DNA from: a virus
Lineage: Duplodnaviria > Heunggongvirae > Uroviricota > Caudoviricetes
Reading direction: 5' to 3' (one strand)
DNA length: 9,484 bases
IMG/VR virus record: IMGVR_UViG_2531839207_000025
Coordinates: 1-9,484 of that record
The notes beneath the pieces are model-generated. The model had not been told where the DNA came from, made no database searches, and worked only from the letters and a program-made list of their open reading frames with translations. Within the stretch, counting starts at the first letter, position 1, and every line of letters starts with the position of its first letter. Below are positions 1,457-8,299 of this stretch, in pieces. The position numbers and the translations under genes were made by a program.

Positions 1457-2617
1457 TCAGGTTGGATCAACAGGCACTACGTTCTCACTTGGGTAACAGC
1501 CCAATACCTTCATTGAACGGGTAATTTCCCCTAACTCTTTCAATGCTTTTTGCATTTCCGCTGATTCAAGATTGGCCTGAATATCCAGATAAAACATCTC
1601 TTCCCATGGATTACCGTGAATCGGGCGTGATTCCAGACGGGTCATAATCAGATTGTGGTTGCGCAGCACCAGCAACGCTTCAACCAGCGCACCGGCTTGT
1701 TGCCCGGTCGCCATTAACAACGTCGTTTTCGCCGGAACCTGGTCAGACACGTTAATGGCTTTACGTGCCAACACCACAAATCGGGTGAAGTTTTGTTGCT
1801 GATTCGCTTCAATACGCTCCAGTACCTGCAAACCGTACAAAGTGCCGCCAGCTTCGCTTCCCAACGCAGCAACATGCGGTGATTTTGCCTGTGCAACCTT
1901 TTCCATTGCCGCAGACGTACTTTCGGTATATTCAATCTTCCAGTGAGGATAACGATTAAGGAATTTGCTGCATTGCTGGAATGGCTGCGGATGGCTGTAG
2001 ACCGTATTAATAGTGGATAAATCAGTCGTGCCGGAGACCAACAAACAATGGTCGATAGTTAACGTCATCTCGCCAACAATCGACAAGCTGGTATGTTGCA
2101 GCAGATCGTAAACGTCGTTTATGGCACCGGAGCTGGTATTTTCAATCGGTACGACGGCATAGTCGGCCTGGCCGGTTTCCACCTGATTAAAAATATCGGC
2201 AAATTTGGCGCAGCCACTTTCAATGAATTGCTCAAAGTGACGGGCAGCATACTGGCGCGCCGCAAGATGGGAATAAGAACCTTTGGGGCCGAGAAAAGCG
2301 ATGCGTGCTGAGTGCGGATTAATTTTATTGAGATGTTGCTGGAGCAAAGCCTGCTGAGTTAATACGGAATCTTCAATGATGAGCTGGAACAGGCGAGTAA
2401 TGTAATGGGCGTCCAGATGGTGCGCTTTACCGAGCGTAATTAATCTTTCCAGTAAATCGCGTTCACGATCAATATCTCGTACCGGGCGATGCGAGAGCAG
2501 TTTGGCTTTTCCTACCTCGACGGCCAATTCGCGCCGCTCTGCCAGTAATGCTAATAATTTTTCATCCAGCGCGCTGATTTTCTCTCGCAGCGCCAGTAAC
2601 GGGTTTTCCGATGTCAT
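1457..2617 (-). CDS. pheA: Bifunctional chorismate mutase / prephenate dehydratase (P-protein)
   Basis: 386-aa minus-strand ORF starting [32 protein letters not shown]; ATG is the complement of cat at 2615-2617; matches E. coli PheA in length and sequence as I recall it; sits downstream of pheL and the attenuator. Confidence 0.95.
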
Positions 2618-2930: not shown

Positions 2931-3920
2931 TTATGTGGATGAAATGTGGATGCCTCCTTTTAACGGATTAAGTGAAATTGCATCCTGGAGGAAATCAGGA
3001 GCGAGGTGCGCATAGGTCATAGTTTGCTGGATCGTGGCGTGCCCCATAATTCGCTGGAGCGTAAGTATATTTCCTCCATTAATCATAAAGTGAGCAGCAA
3101 AGGTATGGCGTAGAACATGTACAGCCTGTCCTTTTGGTAGGTCTGGCTTAACACTGCGAAGCACCTTGCGATATTCCTCATAATTGACGTCAAACAAAAG
3201 GCCGGATTTCTTTGTTTTGATCTCACTAACAACTTCATCAGAGACAGGAATAATTCGAACTTTTCCGTTTTTAGTTTTGTTAAACGTCACGCGATTATTG
3301 ATGATGTGTTCCGCGCGTAGATTTTTCGCTTCTCCCCATCTCGCCCCAGTACTGAGACAAAGTAGCGTAATCCGCCGGGCATCACCGTTTACTGCATCCA
3401 GCAATTTGGCGATTTCTTCCGTAGTGAGGTACGTCATTTCGGGTGATTTTCGTTTCAAAGAGGGGAGGGCGCGGAGTGGATTTTCTCCGTGAAATTCTCC
3501 GGCATTTGCCAGAAGTGTAAACATTCCTCCGAGATCCGACTCATCACGCCGAACAGTAGACTCTTTTACTCCCAAAGATAAACGGGAGCTTCGATAAGCG
3601 GCCATGAAACGAGCATTAATCTGGCTAACCCTTGGATCATTCATTTCTTTGATGATTTTTTTCAACCTGGTTAGAACGCCGTTAGCATATGGCTTATTGC
3701 GTCCACCCAATTCCCACCATAACGGAAGCAGATCTGAGAGATGACGTTGCTCTGTTGGCTTTTCAAGCCATTCCTTATCGTGCATGTGGCTGAGAACATA
3801 ACGCTCAAAGGCCACTGCATCTGCCTTTTTCTTAAAAATCCGCTGAATCCGACGTCCACTTCGGCCACGCGGTCTAACATCCACTTTATACCGTCCACCA
3901 TCGAGCGCTTTAATTGCCAT
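2931..3920 (-). CDS. int: Phage integrase, tyrosine recombinase, P2 Int-like
   Basis: Minus-strand ORF; preferred start at 3920 (MAIKALDGGRYKVDVRPRGR, ggaggg RBS 9 nt upstream) rather than the track start at 3953; C-terminal motifs ILCLSTGARWGEA, HVLRHTFAAHFMINGG, LQRIMGH and YAHLAP fit the tyrosine recombinase R..H-x-x-R..Y pattern; strong resemblance to P2 Int as I recall it. Confidence 0.9.
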   Translation of the reverse strand: MAIKALDGGRYKVDVRPRGRSGRRIQRIFKKKADAVAFERYVLSHMHDKEWLEKPTEQRHLSDLLPLWWELGGRNKPYANGVLTRLKKIIKEMNDPRVSQINARFMAAYRSSRLSLGVKESTVRRDESDLGGMFTLLANAGEFHGENPLRALPSLKRKSPEMTYLTTEEIAKLLDAVNGDARRITLLCLSTGARWGEAKNLRAEHIINNRVTFNKTKNGKVRIIPVSDEVVSEIKTKKSGLLFDVNYEEYRKVLRSVKPDLPKGQAVHVLRHTFAAHFMINGGNILTLQRIMGHATIQQTMTYAHLAPDFLQDAISLNPLKGGIHISST

Positions 3921-3986
3921 TGGCAAGCCCTCCGGTGAAACGAGGAAAGACATTTCCAGTTTGTAAAACGTAAGAATAATAAAGGG

Positions 3987-4289
3987 TTAACCAATTTTCC
4001 TTTCGGATGGGGGTAAGTCCGTTGGCTCTTGCCCATAGTGTGCGAGAGCCGGAGCTATCTGCCCGGATTCAGGCGCAATTTTTCCAGTCATAAACCACAA
4101 CGCATATTTCTCAAATCTGGGGTTGTTTAGTATTTGCTCAATTACTTCAGCATTAGGGATAGTTTTACCGCTTTCATATCTCCACAGAGCATCACGGTTT
4201 AAACCAAGCATTTTTGCTGTATCCGGGAGGCTAGTAAGTCTCTCGCTTTCACGCATGATTTTTATGCGCTCTCCAATAGTCATACGCAT
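3987..4289 (-). CDS. Immunity repressor, P2 C-like (HTH)
   Basis: Translation MRMTIGERIKIMRESERLTSL...WFMTGKIAPESGQIAPALAHYGQ closely resembles P2 C as I recall it; the track start at 4304 is a TTG codon, so I prefer the ATG at 4289 (ggaga 8 nt upstream) or 4283; sits upstream of int on the same strand as in P2. Confidence 0.85.
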   Translation of the reverse strand: MRMTIGERIKIMRESERLTSLPDTAKMLGLNRDALWRYESGKTIPNAEVIEQILNNPRFEKYALWFMTGKIAPESGQIAPALAHYGQEPTDLPPSERKIG

Positions 4290-4384
4290 GTTGCAATTCT
4301 CCAACGTCTGTATTAATGTTTATACAAATGAGTTTGATTTGGGGCATCCGTCGCAAGAAATACCCCAAACAGGGAGATTATCAC
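4290..4384. promoter_or_regulatory. Divergent immunity switch region between the repressor and cox-like genes
   Basis: 95-bp spacer between divergent starts; contains tgTATTAAt and TTGATT promoter-like hexamers and the inverted repeat tttgggg(4339-4345)...ccccaaa(4363-4369); individual promoters and operators not resolved. Confidence 0.45.
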
Positions 4385-4711
4385 ATGAATGAAGAACTAT
4401 TGAGGGCATTGTTTAAGATCCCAGACCCCATCACCGTCGATGAGTTTTCCCGCCGCACAGGTAAGACCGAATCAGCCGTAAGAAAGTTGGTAGAGCGTCG
4501 ACTCATCCCTCTAACTACTGAGCGCGAGGTTTTAGGCGAGGAAGGGAGTTCGCGCCGTCTTCTCATCCTTTGGAATGAGTGGCTCGAAATGGTCTATGAC
4601 GCAACGAAACAACTTCCTCCTGAGCGTAAAGATTGGCGCAATCACTGGCTTAAGAAAGCCAAGAAGCTGGCGGAAGATTTGGGATTAGGCTTTCTTAATT
4701 TTGCTGCATGA
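4385..4711 (+). CDS. Cox/Apl-like excisionase-regulator (small HTH protein)
   Basis: ATG at 4385 with gggag 9 nt upstream; 108 aa; segment VDEFSRRTGKTESAVRKLVERRLIP resembles the P2 Cox DNA-binding region as I recall it; divergent from the repressor gene. Confidence 0.65.
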   Translation: MNEELLRALFKIPDPITVDEFSRRTGKTESAVRKLVERRLIPLTTEREVLGEEGSSRRLLILWNEWLEMVYDATKQLPPERKDWRNHWLKKAKKLAEDLGLGFLNFAA

Positions 4712-5371: not shown

Positions 5372-5614
5372 ATGGGCAAAGAATATAAAACTCTCATTAA
5401 CAAAGCACTTGAGCGTTTTTATTTTCGCTTAAGTGCATCAGGCGCTCATGCTGAACGTGCAGCCCGTGACTCATTGACCAGGGCAATCCGGAGTTTGTAT
5501 GACGTCGCTTTTTACGCTGATGATCTGGATGCACTTAACGAACTTTCCGAGCTGATCTGTGCCGCAGAATGCGGGGAACATATTGAACCGTATAAGCTGG
5601 GGAATATCGCATGA
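5372..5614 (+). CDS. Hypothetical early protein, 80 aa
   Basis: ATG at 5372, 11 bp after the previous stop; tightly packed in the same orientation. Confidence 0.5.
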   Translation: MGKEYKTLINKALERFYFRLSASGAHAERAARDSLTRAIRSLYDVAFYADDLDALNELSELICAAECGEHIEPYKLGNIA

Positions 5615-5724
5615 GTATATTTATCTCATGGCTTGTTCTGATGATTTCGGTGGCCTGCGCCATTGGAATTATGCGAATTATTCATTCAGTAAAAAAGATT
5701 GAACGTTTTTTCACTGGTGAATAA
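5611..5724 (+). CDS. Small hydrophobic protein, 37 aa: MSIFISWLVLMISVACAIGIMRIIHSVKKIERFFTGE; one predicted transmembrane helix
   Basis: Its ATG overlaps the upstream TGA (ATGA at 5611-5614); not in the ORF track because of the length cutoff; hydrophobic core followed by a basic tail. Confidence 0.35.
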   Translation: MSIFISWLVLMISVACAIGIMRIIHSVKKIERFFTGE

Positions 5725-6255: not shown

Positions 6256-6459
6256 ATGGCAATTAAGCATTTTCCCGTCGTTCGCTTTACCTCCAGAGGG
6301 CGCGAATACGAGGTCGACGAACGCCTGATTACCACTATCGACAAACATCGTTCGGAAAAGGATGCACACCACATCTACCTCACTGACGGCACTTACTTCT
6401 GCGCCACTAATGTGGCGCGGGTAAACCTTATCCGACAGGTACAGGAGCATCGTAAATGA
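6256..6459 (+). CDS. Hypothetical protein, 67 aa; first gene of a four-gene translationally coupled module
   Basis: ATG at 6256 immediately after an A7-G7 tract that serves as the RBS; its stop overlaps the next start (ATGA). Confidence 0.55.
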   Translation: MAIKHFPVVRFTSRGREYEVDERLITTIDKHRSEKDAHHIYLTDGTYFCATNVARVNLIRQVQEHRK

Positions 6460-6674
6460 GCAGAAAGCGAATCACACGCAGGCATCGCCGCACACACATG
6501 AATTCCTTACCGACGCTGAAAGAACTCATTCAACACGAGATCGCTGATTTCTGCGCACCGCTGGGGTCGCCTGGCGAACCGGAAACGCCAGAAGCGATGC
6601 AGCGCGAACTCATGATGCGCATCGATAACGTTTTTGACTTTTTCCTGAATAACAAAAGAGAGCAATCAACATGA
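6456..6674 (+). CDS. Hypothetical protein, 72 aa, strongly basic N-terminus (SRKRITRRHRRTH)
   Basis: ATGA overlaps at both ends (6456-6459 and 6671-6674). Confidence 0.55.
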   Translation: MSRKRITRRHRRTHMNSLPTLKELIQHEIADFCAPLGSPGEPETPEAMQRELMMRIDNVFDFFLNNKREQST

Positions 6675-6874
6675 ACAAAAAGACCTGGTTTCGCGCATAT
6701 ATGTGGGCGCTGGTATGCGTCCTCGTCTCTCTCATTCTGTATGCAGGACTACTCCCCCGAATGATTTCATCAGACAGCTCCTTCCTGGTATTGCTGGGCA
6801 TTTTCATTGCCATGCTGTACCCGGCAGGCGTTGTTCGCCTTTTCAGTAAGTACATCAAGGAAATCAAACAATGA
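6671..6874 (+). CDS. Small integral membrane protein, 67 aa, two predicted TM helices
   Basis: Hydrophobic stretches WALVCVLVSLILYAGLL and FLVLLGIFIAMLYPAGVV; ATGA overlaps with both neighbours. Confidence 0.6.
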   Translation: MNKKTWFRAYMWALVCVLVSLILYAGLLPRMISSDSSFLVLLGIFIAMLYPAGVVRLFSKYIKEIKQ

Positions 6875-7701
6875 AGAAATTCAAACTCTTTCAGATTCTC
6901 CCGCTTTTTGCCGCCATCCTGCTGGTTGGCTGCGATCGCGTTGAGCCAGGTAATGTGGGCATCAAAGTCAACAAGCTGGGCGACGACAAAGGCGTTGGCG
7001 AAGTGGTTGGCGTTGGCCGCTACTGGACTGGCTGGAATACCGAGGTTTACATCTTCCCGACCTTCAAACAAATGAAGACCTACGATGACCCGTTCAGCTT
7101 CCAGATGAGTGACGGCACAACCATCGGCTATCACATCGGCGTGGCCTACAAGGTCGATCCATCCAAAGTTACCACAGTGTTTCAGACCTACCGCAAAGGC
7201 GTGGACGACATTACCGACACTGACCTGCGCCAGAAGATCGCCGACGCACTCAACCGACTGGCCAGCAAAATGACCACAGATAAATTCATCGACGGTGGCA
7301 AGTCTGAACTGCTGGATTCAGCACTTAAAGATATTCAGGAAGAGATGACCCCCATCGGCATTCAGGTCATGAGCCTCTCTTATGTCGGTAAACCGGAATA
7401 TCCGCCAACCGTTATCGACAGCATTAACGCCAAAGTCACGGCAAACCAGAAAACCCTGCAACGCGAACAGGAAGTCAAGCAACGCGAAGCAGAAGCCAAC
7501 ATGTTGCGCGCAGAAGCTGCCGGACAGGCTGATGCCATTCGCACAAAAGCCCAGGCTGAAGCCGACGCCATTCGTTTACGCGGTGAAGCTCTGCGCCAGA
7601 ATCCCGGCGTTATGGAGCTGGAAGCAATCAACAAATGGAACGGCACGCTACCGCAATACATGACCAGCAATACCGCTGTTCCGTTTGTTCCGGTGAAGTA
7701 A
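6871..7701 (+). CDS. Lipoprotein with SPFH/Band-7 (stomatin/prohibitin/HflKC-like) domain, 276 aa
   Basis: N-terminus MKKFKLFQILPLFAAILLVGC has a lipobox (LVGC); the body, with a long Ala/Glu/Arg-rich predicted helix (REQEVKQREAEANMLRAEAAGQADAIRTKAQAEADAIRLRGEA), resembles SPFH-family organisation; assigned from sequence pattern, not a search. Confidence 0.75.
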   Translation: MKKFKLFQILPLFAAILLVGCDRVEPGNVGIKVNKLGDDKGVGEVVGVGRYWTGWNTEVYIFPTFKQMKTYDDPFSFQMSDGTTIGYHIGVAYKVDPSKVTTVFQTYRKGVDDITDTDLRQKIADALNRLASKMTTDKFIDGGKSELLDSALKDIQEEMTPIGIQVMSLSYVGKPEYPPTVIDSINAKVTANQKTLQREQEVKQREAEANMLRAEAAGQADAIRTKAQAEADAIRLRGEALRQNPGVMELEAINKWNGTLPQYMTSNTAVPFVPVK

Positions 7702-7707
7702 TTAAAC

Positions 7708-7732
7708 CCGGCCAGTGAAAACCGCTGGCCGG
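7708..7732 (+). terminator. GC-rich hairpin 7 bp after the SPFH gene stop; possible terminator or RNA-stability element
   Basis: ccggccag / ctggccgg 8-bp stem with a 9-nt loop; the nearest T-run (atttttt, 7745-7751) is 12 nt downstream, so not a canonical intrinsic terminator. Confidence 0.3.
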
Positions 7733-7869
7733 AGCAGTATCAGGATTTTTTAGTATGCCGTTCTCACAAAAAAACCGCTTGCCATGCCGCAATCAGTCAG
7801 GTTACATTTCCGCTGCACCTCATAAAACGGGTGCCGGGTTTCGCAGCCTGCTGACTACAAGAGCGCACA

Positions 7870-7889
7870 ACCGCGCCAGCGGTTTTTTT
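7870..7889 (+). terminator. Candidate intrinsic terminator inside the ORF-free spacer
   Basis: accgc-gcca-gcggt short hairpin immediately followed by seven T; a second T7 run at 7910-7916 has only a weak stem before it. Confidence 0.35.
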
Positions 7890-7930
7890 GTGCGTACTGT
7901 ATTGCCACGTTTTTTTCGCGTCAGAATTAT

Positions 7931-8006
7931 GGCGGGGCGTACGGGGCCGACTTCGGTCGGGCCGGGATCTCTTGTAGCCGGTACTGCGAACCTCGTACGT
8001 CTCGCC
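7931..8006 (+). ncRNA. Candidate structured RNA element, 76 nt, family unknown
   Basis: 13-bp closing stem ggcggggcgtacg (7931-7943) / cgtacgtctcgcc (7994-8006) with two G-U pairs that would be A-C mismatches on the opposite strand; internal hairpin GGGCCGAC-UUCG-GUCGGGCC (7944-7963); in an ORF-free spacer. Confidence 0.25.
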
Positions 8007-8068
8007 ACCCACAGTTTCGCAGCTCTGGATGGTGAGTTTTCACAACTTACTACAAGAGGCCACATATC

Positions 8069-8299
8069 ATGGCAAACCGCAAACAGCACCGCGCTATCGC
8101 GGAGCGTCGTCACATCCAGACTGAAATCAACCACAGACTTTCCCGCGCATCACGCGTCGCGCAAATCATGCACATCAATATGCTGCATGAGCGCAGCCAC
8201 GCACTATCAAACATTTATTCCGCCTCTGTTTTCAGCTATCTGGCGGATGATCTGCACGAGCTTCAACAGCTCATCCAGCAGCAAAACAAACTCCATTAA
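8069..8299 (+). CDS. Hypothetical protein, 76 aa
   Basis: ATG at 8069 with aagagg 9 nt upstream; ordinary amino acid composition, unlike the overlapping 206-codon frame. Confidence 0.5.
   Translation: MANRKQHRAIAERRHIQTEINHRLSRASRVAQIMHINMLHERSHALSNIYSASVFSYLADDLHELQQLIQQQNKLH

Follow-up and report, generated by a model that had tools for sequence, protein, structure and literature searches.

Which of the small genes packed into the early region of an Escherichia coli P2-family prophage belong together, and what would a phage gain from a membrane scaffold protein encoded among them? The question is raised by a run of four open reading frames (ORFs) at positions 6256-7701 of a 9,484-nucleotide stretch of DNA, hereafter the window (IMG/VR record IMGVR_UViG_2531839207_000025, Caudoviricetes), the last of which encodes a lipoprotein of the SPFH/Band-7 superfamily. 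An earlier note, made from the letters of this DNA alone, had described the run as a single translationally coupled four-gene module. We found that the unit is smaller. Genes 3 and 4, which encode a small protein with two transmembrane (TM) segments and the SPFH lipoprotein, constitute a mobile two-gene accessory cassette (about 6650-7760) inserted where the first early transcription unit ends. Genes 1 and 2 lie outside the cassette and count among the ordinary, variable early genes that the P88-like lineage carries. The features of the run are the following:

6256-6459, plus strand: gene 1, 67 aa
6456-6674, plus strand: gene 2, 72 aa
6671-6874, plus strand: gene 3, 67 aa
6871-7701, plus strand: gene 4, 276 aa
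6871-6936, plus strand: signal peptide of gene 4 with lipobox LVGC (Cys21 at 6931-6933) and Asp at +2 (6934-6936), from the sequence by regular expression and hydropathy
7405-7599, plus strand: long charged helix of gene 4 (residues 179-243), by DSSP on the AlphaFold2 model; the coiled-coil wall element of SPFH cages
7633-7653, plus strand: C-terminal K-W-N-G-x-L-P motif of gene 4, with W256 and G258 invariant and P261 nearly so in a 40-sequence alignment (35-61% identity)
7708-7732, plus strand: stable hairpin after the SPFH stop codon, within the inserted segment (-21.7 kcal/mol, z = -3.6 against shuffled sequences)

An SPFH lipoprotein and its two-transmembrane partner

The last gene of the run had been read as an SPFH-like lipoprotein with a long charged helix, and both points held. 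Gene 4 matches Pfam Band_7 (PF01145) with 108 bits (cutoff 23.6; E=7.5e-31), its residues 23-209 covering positions 2-176 of the 176-position profile, and it falls in phrog_200. The AlphaFold2 model has a mean pLDDT of 73.8, rising to 84-94 over residues ~61-180, and consists of strands (28-95), helices (97-162), a further strand (164-176) and the long helix (179-243). The region of this helix gives the only sequence-level matches in the PDB, namely prohibitin-2, HflK and HflC. By Foldseek the best matches to the model are erlin1/2, prohibitin, HflK/C and stomatin (E ~1e-12, 15-18% identity), with a probability of 1.00 for erlin, prohibitin, HflK/C, stomatin and flotillin, and with QmcA (PDB 8z5g) among the fold matches. 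The Pfam score, the alpha/beta fold followed by a long helix and the N-terminal membrane attachment signal are among the marks of the SPFH superfamily, and gene 4 has these three. The KWNGxLP motif is among the most conserved stretches of the lipoprotein family in the 40-sequence alignment and, together with the long helix, is a likely ring-closing element. Orthology with HflK or HflC was also considered and rejected on the equivalog scores, which reach 25.7 bits for TIGR01932 (cutoff 134.4), 23.6 for TIGR01933 (159.4), 20.7 for PRK10930 (660) and 18.8 for PRK11029 (427).

The sequence CDRVEPG, which begins with the lipobox cysteine, is kept in phages phiP27, RCS47 and Cyrano and in most Enterobacterales homologues. 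In E. coli, an Asp directly after the lipid-modified Cys (+2) is an inner-membrane retention signal. Of the 150 best representatives of the family, a lipobox is present in 93 and a TM anchor in 48. One common group of E. coli and Enterobacteriaceae alleles (P0116, P0117 and P0120, the last alone on 175 contigs) carries a Tyr in place of the lipobox Cys (GIIGYDRVEPG), and to judge from this substitution their product would be an uncleaved signal-anchored protein and not a lipoprotein.

Gene 3, noted earlier as a 67-aa membrane protein with two TM segments, indeed contains, by hydropathy, hydrophobic 17-mers at residues 12-28 and 39-55, has basic termini and falls in phrog_1130 ('membrane protein'). 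The loop between the helices carries the motif L-L-P-R-M-I-S-S-D-S, for which the family consensus is P-x-L-I-S-x-x-S-T, with P29, S33 and G43 invariant. Gene 3 belongs to no Pfam family and has no sequence relative in the PDB, where the partner profile found no meaningful match, YbbJ included. Used alone as a query it returned E. coli sequences only, and the family was recovered by position and with a home-built hidden Markov model (HMM). In phiP27 (lambdoid), RCS47 (P1-like) and Cyrano (SSU5-like), whose SPFH genes are 76-93% identical to gene 4, a two-TM ORF of 62-78 aa stands right before the SPFH gene, overlapping its start or lying at most 3 nt away; it bears no annotation in the phiP27 and RCS47 records. 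With gene 3 they share only 20-45% identity, together with the inter-helix motif Y-x-x-L-L/V-P-x-L/M-I-S-x-x-S/D-T. An NfeD-type partner was tried and rejected, with no NfeD (PF01957) match for gene 3 at E<0.1 nor for 19 diverse partners at E<0.01.

The partner HMM was built from 21 sequences, namely 16 separate upstream ORFs of bacterial loci, the fused N-terminal region of locus L210, gene 3 of the window and the three phage partners. The bacterial loci, 59 in number, were returned by a scan of one genome per species with a 9-sequence alignment as query. Exactly one ORF was matched in 57 of them (5920 ORFs of at least 35 aa scanned), each on the same strand as the SPFH gene and just upstream of it; 17 of the 57 loci had supplied seed sequences and the remaining 40 are independent detections. 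The HMM also finds Moo19 gp30 (N4-like), 4MG gp235 (rV5-like) and one Lak-B2 ORF, and two-TM ORFs occupy the partner position in phiE125 (gp44) and in a crAss-like phage (gp015). In Shigella flexneri (L165; 5236-6004) and one E. coli locus (L166), a segment of ~770 nt lies between the two genes of the pair; its size and reverse-strand ORFs allow it to be read as an IS1 element.

In some members of the family the two proteins are one. The 150 best representatives of 2919 SPFH family clusters (50% identity, E<1e-3) include 140 full-length sequences, and in 16 of these the HMM detected the partner as an N-terminal domain ahead of the SPFH part; none of the 16 had served as a seed. Two fusions (L210, and P0143 of L235, present on three contigs) proved to be uninterrupted reading frames on DNA, and P0148, in which a gene 3-like domain follows the SPFH domain, was left out of the count because it may be a stop-codon read-through. 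The fusions run from TM1 through the conserved loop, TM2, a linker rich in Arg and Lys and a signal-peptide-like TM3 with a residual lipobox to the SPFH domain. With a basic linker expected in the cytoplasm, both the SPFH domain and the conserved loop would be periplasmic, in agreement with the exported lipoprotein of the split version.

Joint gain and loss was followed in 78 P88-like early regions retrieved via the neighbouring 121-aa ORF, so that the sampling is independent of the SPFH gene; 76 could be classified. Twenty of these have both gene 3 and gene 4 and 56 have neither; in none does one occur without the other, and gene 1 is present in all 76 regardless of them. The winged-helix gene (P88 gp09) occurs in 72 and the full-length Ead/Ea22-like gene (gp10) in 48. 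Just 3 share the arrangement seen in the window, in which a short gene 2 follows gene 1, gp09 is missing and genes 3 and 4 are present. Of 5426 E. coli genomes, 1659 contain DNA that matches the 6256-7701 query, mostly its gene 4 part only, and coverage reaches 80% or more of the query in just 128 of these. The adjacency, the N-terminal fusions and the joint gain and loss make gene 3 the obligate partner of the SPFH lipoprotein, and genes 3 and 4 the real unit. In this sense, the co-occurrence across relatives that the earlier note had asked about came out divided: genes 3 and 4 travel together, and genes 1 and 2 are independent of them.

The four ORFs and their ATGA stop/start overlaps at 6456, 6671 and 6871 are exactly as that note had described them when checked on ORFs and sequence, and so is the basic N-terminus of gene 2. 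What the overlaps had been taken to imply, a special co-translated module, does not follow. A further ATGA overlap is found in the window at 5611, between the DUF4754 gene and a 37-aa membrane ORF, and the P88 early operon has the same 4-nt overlap at five junctions; as such overlaps are the norm in the operon, they do not single out a special module.

An accessory slot in a P88-like early operon

Comparison of the window with a cassette-free relative (L088) places the insertion between ~6650 and 7760. It starts at the last codons of the Ead-like gene and stops just before the sequence leading to isrK, and in L088 gp10 is joined directly to the sequence that starts at ~7755. The proposal that the run is an accessory insertion is right for genes 3 and 4, present in 20 and absent from 56 of the 76 regions, and wrong for genes 1 and 2. 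Its opposite, that these are ordinary conserved early genes of the lineage, is true of genes 1 and 2, genes 3 and 4 being accessory and polymorphic. The canonical P2 early operon, against which the run had been judged foreign, was off target as a comparison: the prophage is P88-like (genus Xuanwuvirus), with an early operon that normally contains these small genes.

The base composition is unremarkable. A consensus scan, which is no proof either way, found no sigma-70-like promoter before the cassette in the window, and an ATGA join links it to the early operon; early-operon control is therefore expected, and not prophage expression, and the window cassette should be read as the tail of a repressor-controlled early operon. 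The hairpin at 7708-7732 was considered as a canonical intrinsic terminator and rejected, since its T-run lies 13 nt downstream and it was not scored as a plus-strand terminator. In Cyrano the layout is a terminator, a promoter-like site (10 of 12 consensus positions), the two genes and a near-identical terminator, which on the sequence appears to be a textbook autonomous unit. The flanking Cyrano hairpins (L005) lie at 2653-2672 and 3792-3811, with sequences AGGCGTCCAAACGGACGCCT and AGGCGTCCAGTTGGACGCCT, and the promoter-like site comes after the first. In RCS47 the upstream gene is divergent, so a promoter must exist there; the consensus scan found none before that cassette.

Other cargo occupies the same slot in relatives. 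Two of them (L126 3844-4317 and L131 3676-4161) carry a minus-strand gene for a two-TM protein of 157-161 aa, and a third (L155 3643-4377, plus strand) carries a 48-aa ORF with a 186-aa helix-turn-helix protein. None of this cargo gave a convincing Pfam or PADLOC match.

Gene 1 encodes a soluble protein like P88 gp08, an early gene product of phrog_3459 (PHROG E=7.9e-45), and has no match in Pfam, NCBIfam or PADLOC. Gene 2 appears, by alignment, to be a short allele of the Ead/Ea22-like gene of the lineage (P88 gp10, 104 aa), and possibly a remnant of it: it covers only positions 34-99 of the 99-position phrog_4144 profile, and in an alignment with P88 gp10 its residues 19-67 correspond to the C-terminal half of that protein. 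In E. coli UPEC132 the equivalent of gene 2 is an N-terminally truncated pseudogene in the RefSeq annotation, and in L155 the pair of gene 1 and short gene 2 occurs once without genes 3 and 4. A possible origin can be derived from another relative, in which (L007 3180-3830 compared with window 6440-6690) the last ~30 nt of gene 1, including the ATGA junction, are duplicated inside the region of the Ead-like gene gp10. Recombination between two such copies of the gene 1 3' end would delete gp09 and the front of gp10 and give the window arrangement with its short gene 2.

The window as a whole is the left end of an E. coli P88-like (P2-family) prophage next to pheA. The prophage portion runs from 2931 onward, and the chromosomal portion is 99.7% identical to E. 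coli chromosomes. Its other features are:

1-282: end of aroF
293-1414: tyrA
1457-2617, minus strand: pheA
2639-2764: pheA leader (Rfam)
2931-3953, minus strand: integrase
3987-4304, minus strand: C-like repressor
4316-4711: cox
between cox and the four-ORF run, in order: DUF4761, a 112-aa ORF, DUF4754, the 37-aa membrane ORF, a 136-aa ORF
after the run, in order: the hairpin, isrK RNA, C4 RNA, the 76-aa 'derepression protein', the 121-aa ORF, the start of a replication gene
7815-7889: isrK small RNA (Rfam), with a sigma-70-like site just upstream at 7779-7808 and a terminator at 7869-7884
7925-8012: C4 antisense RNA (Rfam), with a sigma-70-like site just upstream at 7902-7930
8069-8299: 76-aa 'derepression protein' gene, preceded by the isrK and C4 RNAs

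The gene order of this prophage end is also seen in phage P88 and in E. coli UPEC132, and the chromosome-prophage junction is found in 125 of 5426 complete E. coli genomes. The integrase end of the prophage abuts the pheA leader peptide region (2639-2931). Within this P2-family prophage, the segment 7779-8299 looks like an antisense control module of the P1/P7 immI type. The 37-aa ORF with an ATGA overlap with DUF4754 (5611-5724) encodes a single-TM protein like P88 gp07 and is below the usual ORF length cut-offs.

Distribution and a possible role at the inner membrane

Homologues of gene 4 are encoded, by protein-level search, in 384 of 50,697 phage records. The temperate carriers include P88, Stx2 phages, phiP27, P1-like and SSU5-like phages and Burkholderia phages phiE125 and phi644-2. 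Strictly virulent carriers are found among N4-like Schitoviridae, rV5-like Vequintavirinae, Pseudomonas Bruynoghevirus, Erwinia Ounavirinae, phiCbK-like Caulobacter phages and jumbo phages. One crAss-like phage and the Lak megaphages carry homologues too. A small membrane ORF stands upstream of the SPFH gene in most sampled phage genomes, and in the sampled virulent phages the cassette lies among small early/middle genes near DNA-metabolism genes. Moo19 gp31 is 66% identical to gene 4, and the Moo19 record calls gp30/gp31 similar to coliphage N4 gp19/gp20.

The 59 bacterial loci belong to Enterobacterales, Sutterella, numerous Dyella and other Rhodanobacteraceae, Cupriavidus, Methylumidiphilus, Dependentiae, Saprospirales, Bacteroidales, Flavobacterium and Desulfosporosinus. 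In ~25 Dyella genomes the pair occupies a conserved chromosomal site, divergent from genes for a BlaI-like repressor and a BlaR1-like M56 sensor peptidase (e.g. L176 2973-5427) and often with a hemerythrin gene downstream. In bla-type loci the position divergent from the repressor/sensor genes is that of the regulated target gene, which hints by analogy that the Dyella pair may be induced by an envelope signal. Together with the virulent phages, the Dyella chromosomes bear out the presence of the pair outside prophages, which the earlier note had proposed to check. The loci of Sutterella (DNA methylase and DUF2303 nearby), Cupriavidus (DnaB-like helicase) and Desulfosporosinus (YqaJ-like recombinase, NAMPT-like and PRPS-like genes) look phage-derived.

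Several neighbours of the cassette deserve mention. NAMPT-like and PRPS-like genes lie directly beside it in crAss cr85_1 (L229 166-2317) and in the Desulfosporosinus phage-like contig (L220 7205-9545); NAMPT and PRPS are the gene pair of the NAD+ reconstitution pathway NARP1 (bioRxiv 10.1101/2024.02.11.579819). A NADAR gene in 4MG and an RtcB-like ligase gene in phiCbK are also beside it, and a CCA-adding enzyme is encoded two genes away in Erwinia Harbringer. A tRNA gene is found within ~450 nt of the SPFH gene in RCS47 (L004 3802-3877), where a tRNA-Met begins 28 nt past the SPFH stop codon, in jumbo phage SE_PL (L231 2493-2566) and in N4-like Pokken (L234 2677-2751). RNA-repair loci of Band-7, tRNA-like RNA and RtcB have been described (Burroughs & Aravind 2016, as cited in bioRxiv 10.1101/312249). 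Membership in this class was considered and rejected, as only 3 of 42 loci have a tRNA at 500 nt or less, all in tRNA-cluster phages, and an RtcB-like ligase is encoded nearby in phiCbK only.

What would such a pair do? SPFH proteins form rings or domes that bound a membrane patch or enclose clients. We favour, with a probability of roughly one half, a periplasm-facing inner-membrane SPFH scaffold with a 1:1 transmembrane partner that has an accessory membrane role during infection. Gene 4 would be exported and lipid-modified, and the Asp at +2 would hold it on the periplasmic side of the inner membrane, where its long C-terminal helix would let it build a ring or dome as other SPFH proteins do. 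Gene 3 would be a hairpin with both ends cytoplasmic and its short conserved loop periplasmic, pairing 1:1 with gene 4 and providing, as a transmembrane fence, the membrane-spanning part that the lipoprotein lacks. In the infected cell the complex may delimit or stabilise part of the inner membrane, or may surround an inner-membrane client protein of the host. What the phage would gain is an accessory, non-essential membrane function in lytic growth, for which an envelope kept intact or energised and a blocked entry of a second phage are candidates. A precedent for a 1:1 cage of an SPFH protein and its partner is QmcA/YbbK-YbbJ, and one for a periplasm-facing SPFH cage is HflK/C, which encloses FtsH and is the only one known in bacteria (both as summarised in PMC13086221). 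Use in lytic growth is supported by the 384 phage records, with their strictly virulent groups and the sampled genes among early/middle genes, and a link to the envelope by the chromosomal Dyella copies next to the BlaI/BlaR1-like pair.

The analysis supports well the identity, fold class, pairing, fusion, accessory status and distribution of the cassette. Localisation, the oligomeric cage, the stoichiometry and the benefit to the phage are all things that we infer, and several observations weigh against the proposed scaffold. Outside Enterobacterales the Cys is mostly followed by Ser, Thr or Gly, so the Asp rule is not general. The AlphaFold2 model of gene 4 is moderate (mean pLDDT as given above, pTM 0.55), with its N- and C-terminal parts poorly predicted. 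No recognisable homologue of gene 3 was found in two bacterial loci (L205 and L220) nor in Pseudomonas TL and phiCbK, which have other small membrane ORFs in its place. To these are added the promoter that the scan did not find in the window and the literature, in which no experiment on any member of the cassette family was found. Finally, PM0222, an HflK/C-like protein of 25-35 kDa from a P. multocida prophage that is only possibly related to gene 4, was reported in outer-membrane vesicles (PMC9872710).

The most specific alternative, which we consider unlikely, is that the phage cage mimics or competes with HflK/HflC and alters the access of substrates to FtsH, stabilising phage proteins or biasing lysis-lysogeny. 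It is compatible with the form of the favoured explanation in which a host client is enclosed. HflK/C is the bacterial precedent with the same orientation, with FtsH inside it (PMC13086221); it is among the best structural matches and provides, with prohibitin-2, the only weak sequence matches in PDB and NCBIfam, and prohibitin and erlin likewise act with proteolysis machinery. However, the identity to HflK/C is only 15-18%, the equivalog scores of 19-26 bits are far from cutoffs of 134-660, and a single SPFH gene stands in the place of a K/C pair. The enterobacterial and Dyella hosts, moreover, presumably encode HflK/C themselves. The cassette is also common in strictly virulent phages, which take no lysogeny decision, and this argues against lysis-lysogeny control as its general role.

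It is also conceivable, although doubtful, that the pair serves prophage defence or superinfection exclusion, as the earlier note had proposed, and protects the lysogen or the infected cell by stopping the DNA of other phages at the inner membrane or by triggering abortive infection. The variable cargo slot with its other contents in relatives, the moron-like promoter and terminators of Cyrano and the abundance of the cassette in E. coli prophages and P1-like plasmids (1659 of 5426 genomes) would suit such a role. Known exclusion proteins act at the periplasm-facing inner membrane, and early expression in virulent phages would fit exclusion of the T4 Imm/Sp type. A known defence system was nevertheless rejected for lack of a meaningful PADLOC match to any of the four proteins: among the 5027 models of PADLOC-DB 2.0, genes 1, 2 and 4 have no match and gene 3 only one of 14 bits to PDC-M18B, over 21 hydrophobic residues (E=0.008). 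No toxin or enzyme domain is present, and expression in the lysogen is doubtful for a cassette without its own promoter in a repressor-controlled early operon. The stable copies in ~25 Dyella genomes beside BlaI/BlaR1-like genes suggest, in turn, a cellular envelope role.

A bolder and rather improbable extension is that the cassette is shared by phages at large as a membrane shield, an early periplasm-facing SPFH cage that would protect the inner membrane from membrane-attacking suicide effectors of the host or from the genome injection of competing phages. The support is anecdotal: in five unrelated phage or phage-like contexts, the cassette adjoins genes of kinds known or suspected to counter defence, namely NAMPT and PRPS (crAss cr85_1 and the Desulfosporosinus contig), NADAR (4MG), the RtcB-like ligase (phiCbK) and the CCA-adding enzyme (Erwinia Harbringer). 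If true, it would constitute a new class of phage counter-defence or exclusion device, and bacteria such as Dyella would retain the same pair as an envelope-stress module.

We regard as very unlikely that gene 4 is a lysogenic-conversion lipoprotein, a factor exposed on the surface or on vesicles that alters the interaction of host and bacterium as a TLR2 agonist or virulence factor. This idea draws on the possibly related PM0222, which is reported to activate TLR1/2 and to contribute to virulence (PMC9872710), and on the carriage of the cassette by Stx-converting phages. Against it, virulent phages of environmental bacteria also carry the cassette, as do free-living soil bacteria, the Asp at +2 and the obligate inner-membrane partner speak against surface exposure, and TLR1/2 is activated by any triacylated lipoprotein. 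Hardly any room is left for the original idea of all four genes as one co-translated system of fixed stoichiometry. In its favour are the three consecutive ATGA overlaps and the recurrence of the exact arrangement, which 128 E. coli genomes share and which is found in 10 of the 80 viral contigs that gene 4 retrieved and in 3 of the 76 obtained through the neighbouring gene. Against it, gene 1 is present in all 76 regions and gene 2-type genes in most relatives, with or without genes 3 and 4; most cassette-bearing relatives carry gene 1, the gp09 winged-helix gene and full-length gp10 upstream instead; genes 3 and 4 move without genes 1 and 2 beyond P88-like phages; and ATGA overlaps are widespread in this operon.

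Relation to described systems and significance

The closest described arrangement is that of the SPFH-NfeD operons (E. coli QmcA/YbbK-YbbJ, Pyrococcus PH1511-PH1510 and S. aureus FloA-NfeD). As in these, a small co-oriented membrane partner gene adjoins the SPFH gene and is sometimes fused to it (57 of 59 loci; 16 of 140 for the fusions), and by analogy a 1:1 stoichiometry of the cassette proteins is likely. QmcA-YbbJ is a 1:1 cage of 26 heterodimers, as summarised in PMC13086221. Unlike NfeD proteins, the cassette partner is a bare two-TM hairpin of ~60-75 aa with no NfeD OB-fold domain, and no ClpP-like protease is present; and the QmcA cage faces the cytoplasm, whereas the SPFH lipoprotein of the cassette is predicted to face the periplasm. 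With a partner that lacks the NfeD domain, the cassette falls outside the SPFH-NfeD class as defined. With HflK/HflC-FtsH it shares an SPFH fold followed by a long coiled-coil helix and a predicted place on the periplasmic side of the inner membrane, and HflK/C is among the closest solved structures. It differs from that system in having one SPFH gene and not a K/C pair, a lipid anchor in place of the N-terminal TM helix, and an identity of 15-18%.

Like phage morons, the cassette is present or absent at a fixed slot in close relatives, occurs in unrelated phage backbones and has, in Cyrano, a promoter-like site and terminators of its own. Unlike them, the copy in the window is tied to the early operon by an ATGA overlap, and no separate promoter was detected for it. 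N4 gp19-gp20 and phrog_1130/phrog_200 are the catalogue counterparts of genes 3 and 4, without a studied function, and the labels in use for the family are phrog_200, phrog_1130, 'N4 gp19/gp20-like', 'lipoprotein' and a misleading 'serine protease'. Full-text literature searches brought up remarks in genome annotations and the PM0222 paper, but no work on the function of a phage SPFH lipoprotein or of N4 gp19/gp20, and neither the pair as a unit nor its fusions were found described. Authors who note the gene call its role in phages unclear (PMC13239085). In agreement with the earlier note, for which this was not a recognised system, no described function was found and no known defence model was matched.

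SPFH cages have recently been solved for HflK/C, prohibitin, erlin, stomatin, flotillin and QmcA-YbbJ, and their roles in Gram-negative bacteria are largely unclear. The cassette described here is a minimal, lipid-anchored version, predicted to face the periplasm, with a partner of 60-75 aa outside any curated family. DNA of the gene 4 region is found in nearly a third of complete E. coli genomes and homologues in 384 sequenced phages, and the carriers include model or medically relevant ones such as an N4-like phage, rV5-like phages, P1-like plasmids, Stx-converting phages, crAss-like phages and Lak megaphages. The pair is common, compact and tractable, consisting of two small genes that were not noted here in E. 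coli K-12. Solving its role would give a function to a very common 'hypothetical' gene pair of phages, and could reveal how phages manage the host inner membrane during infection.

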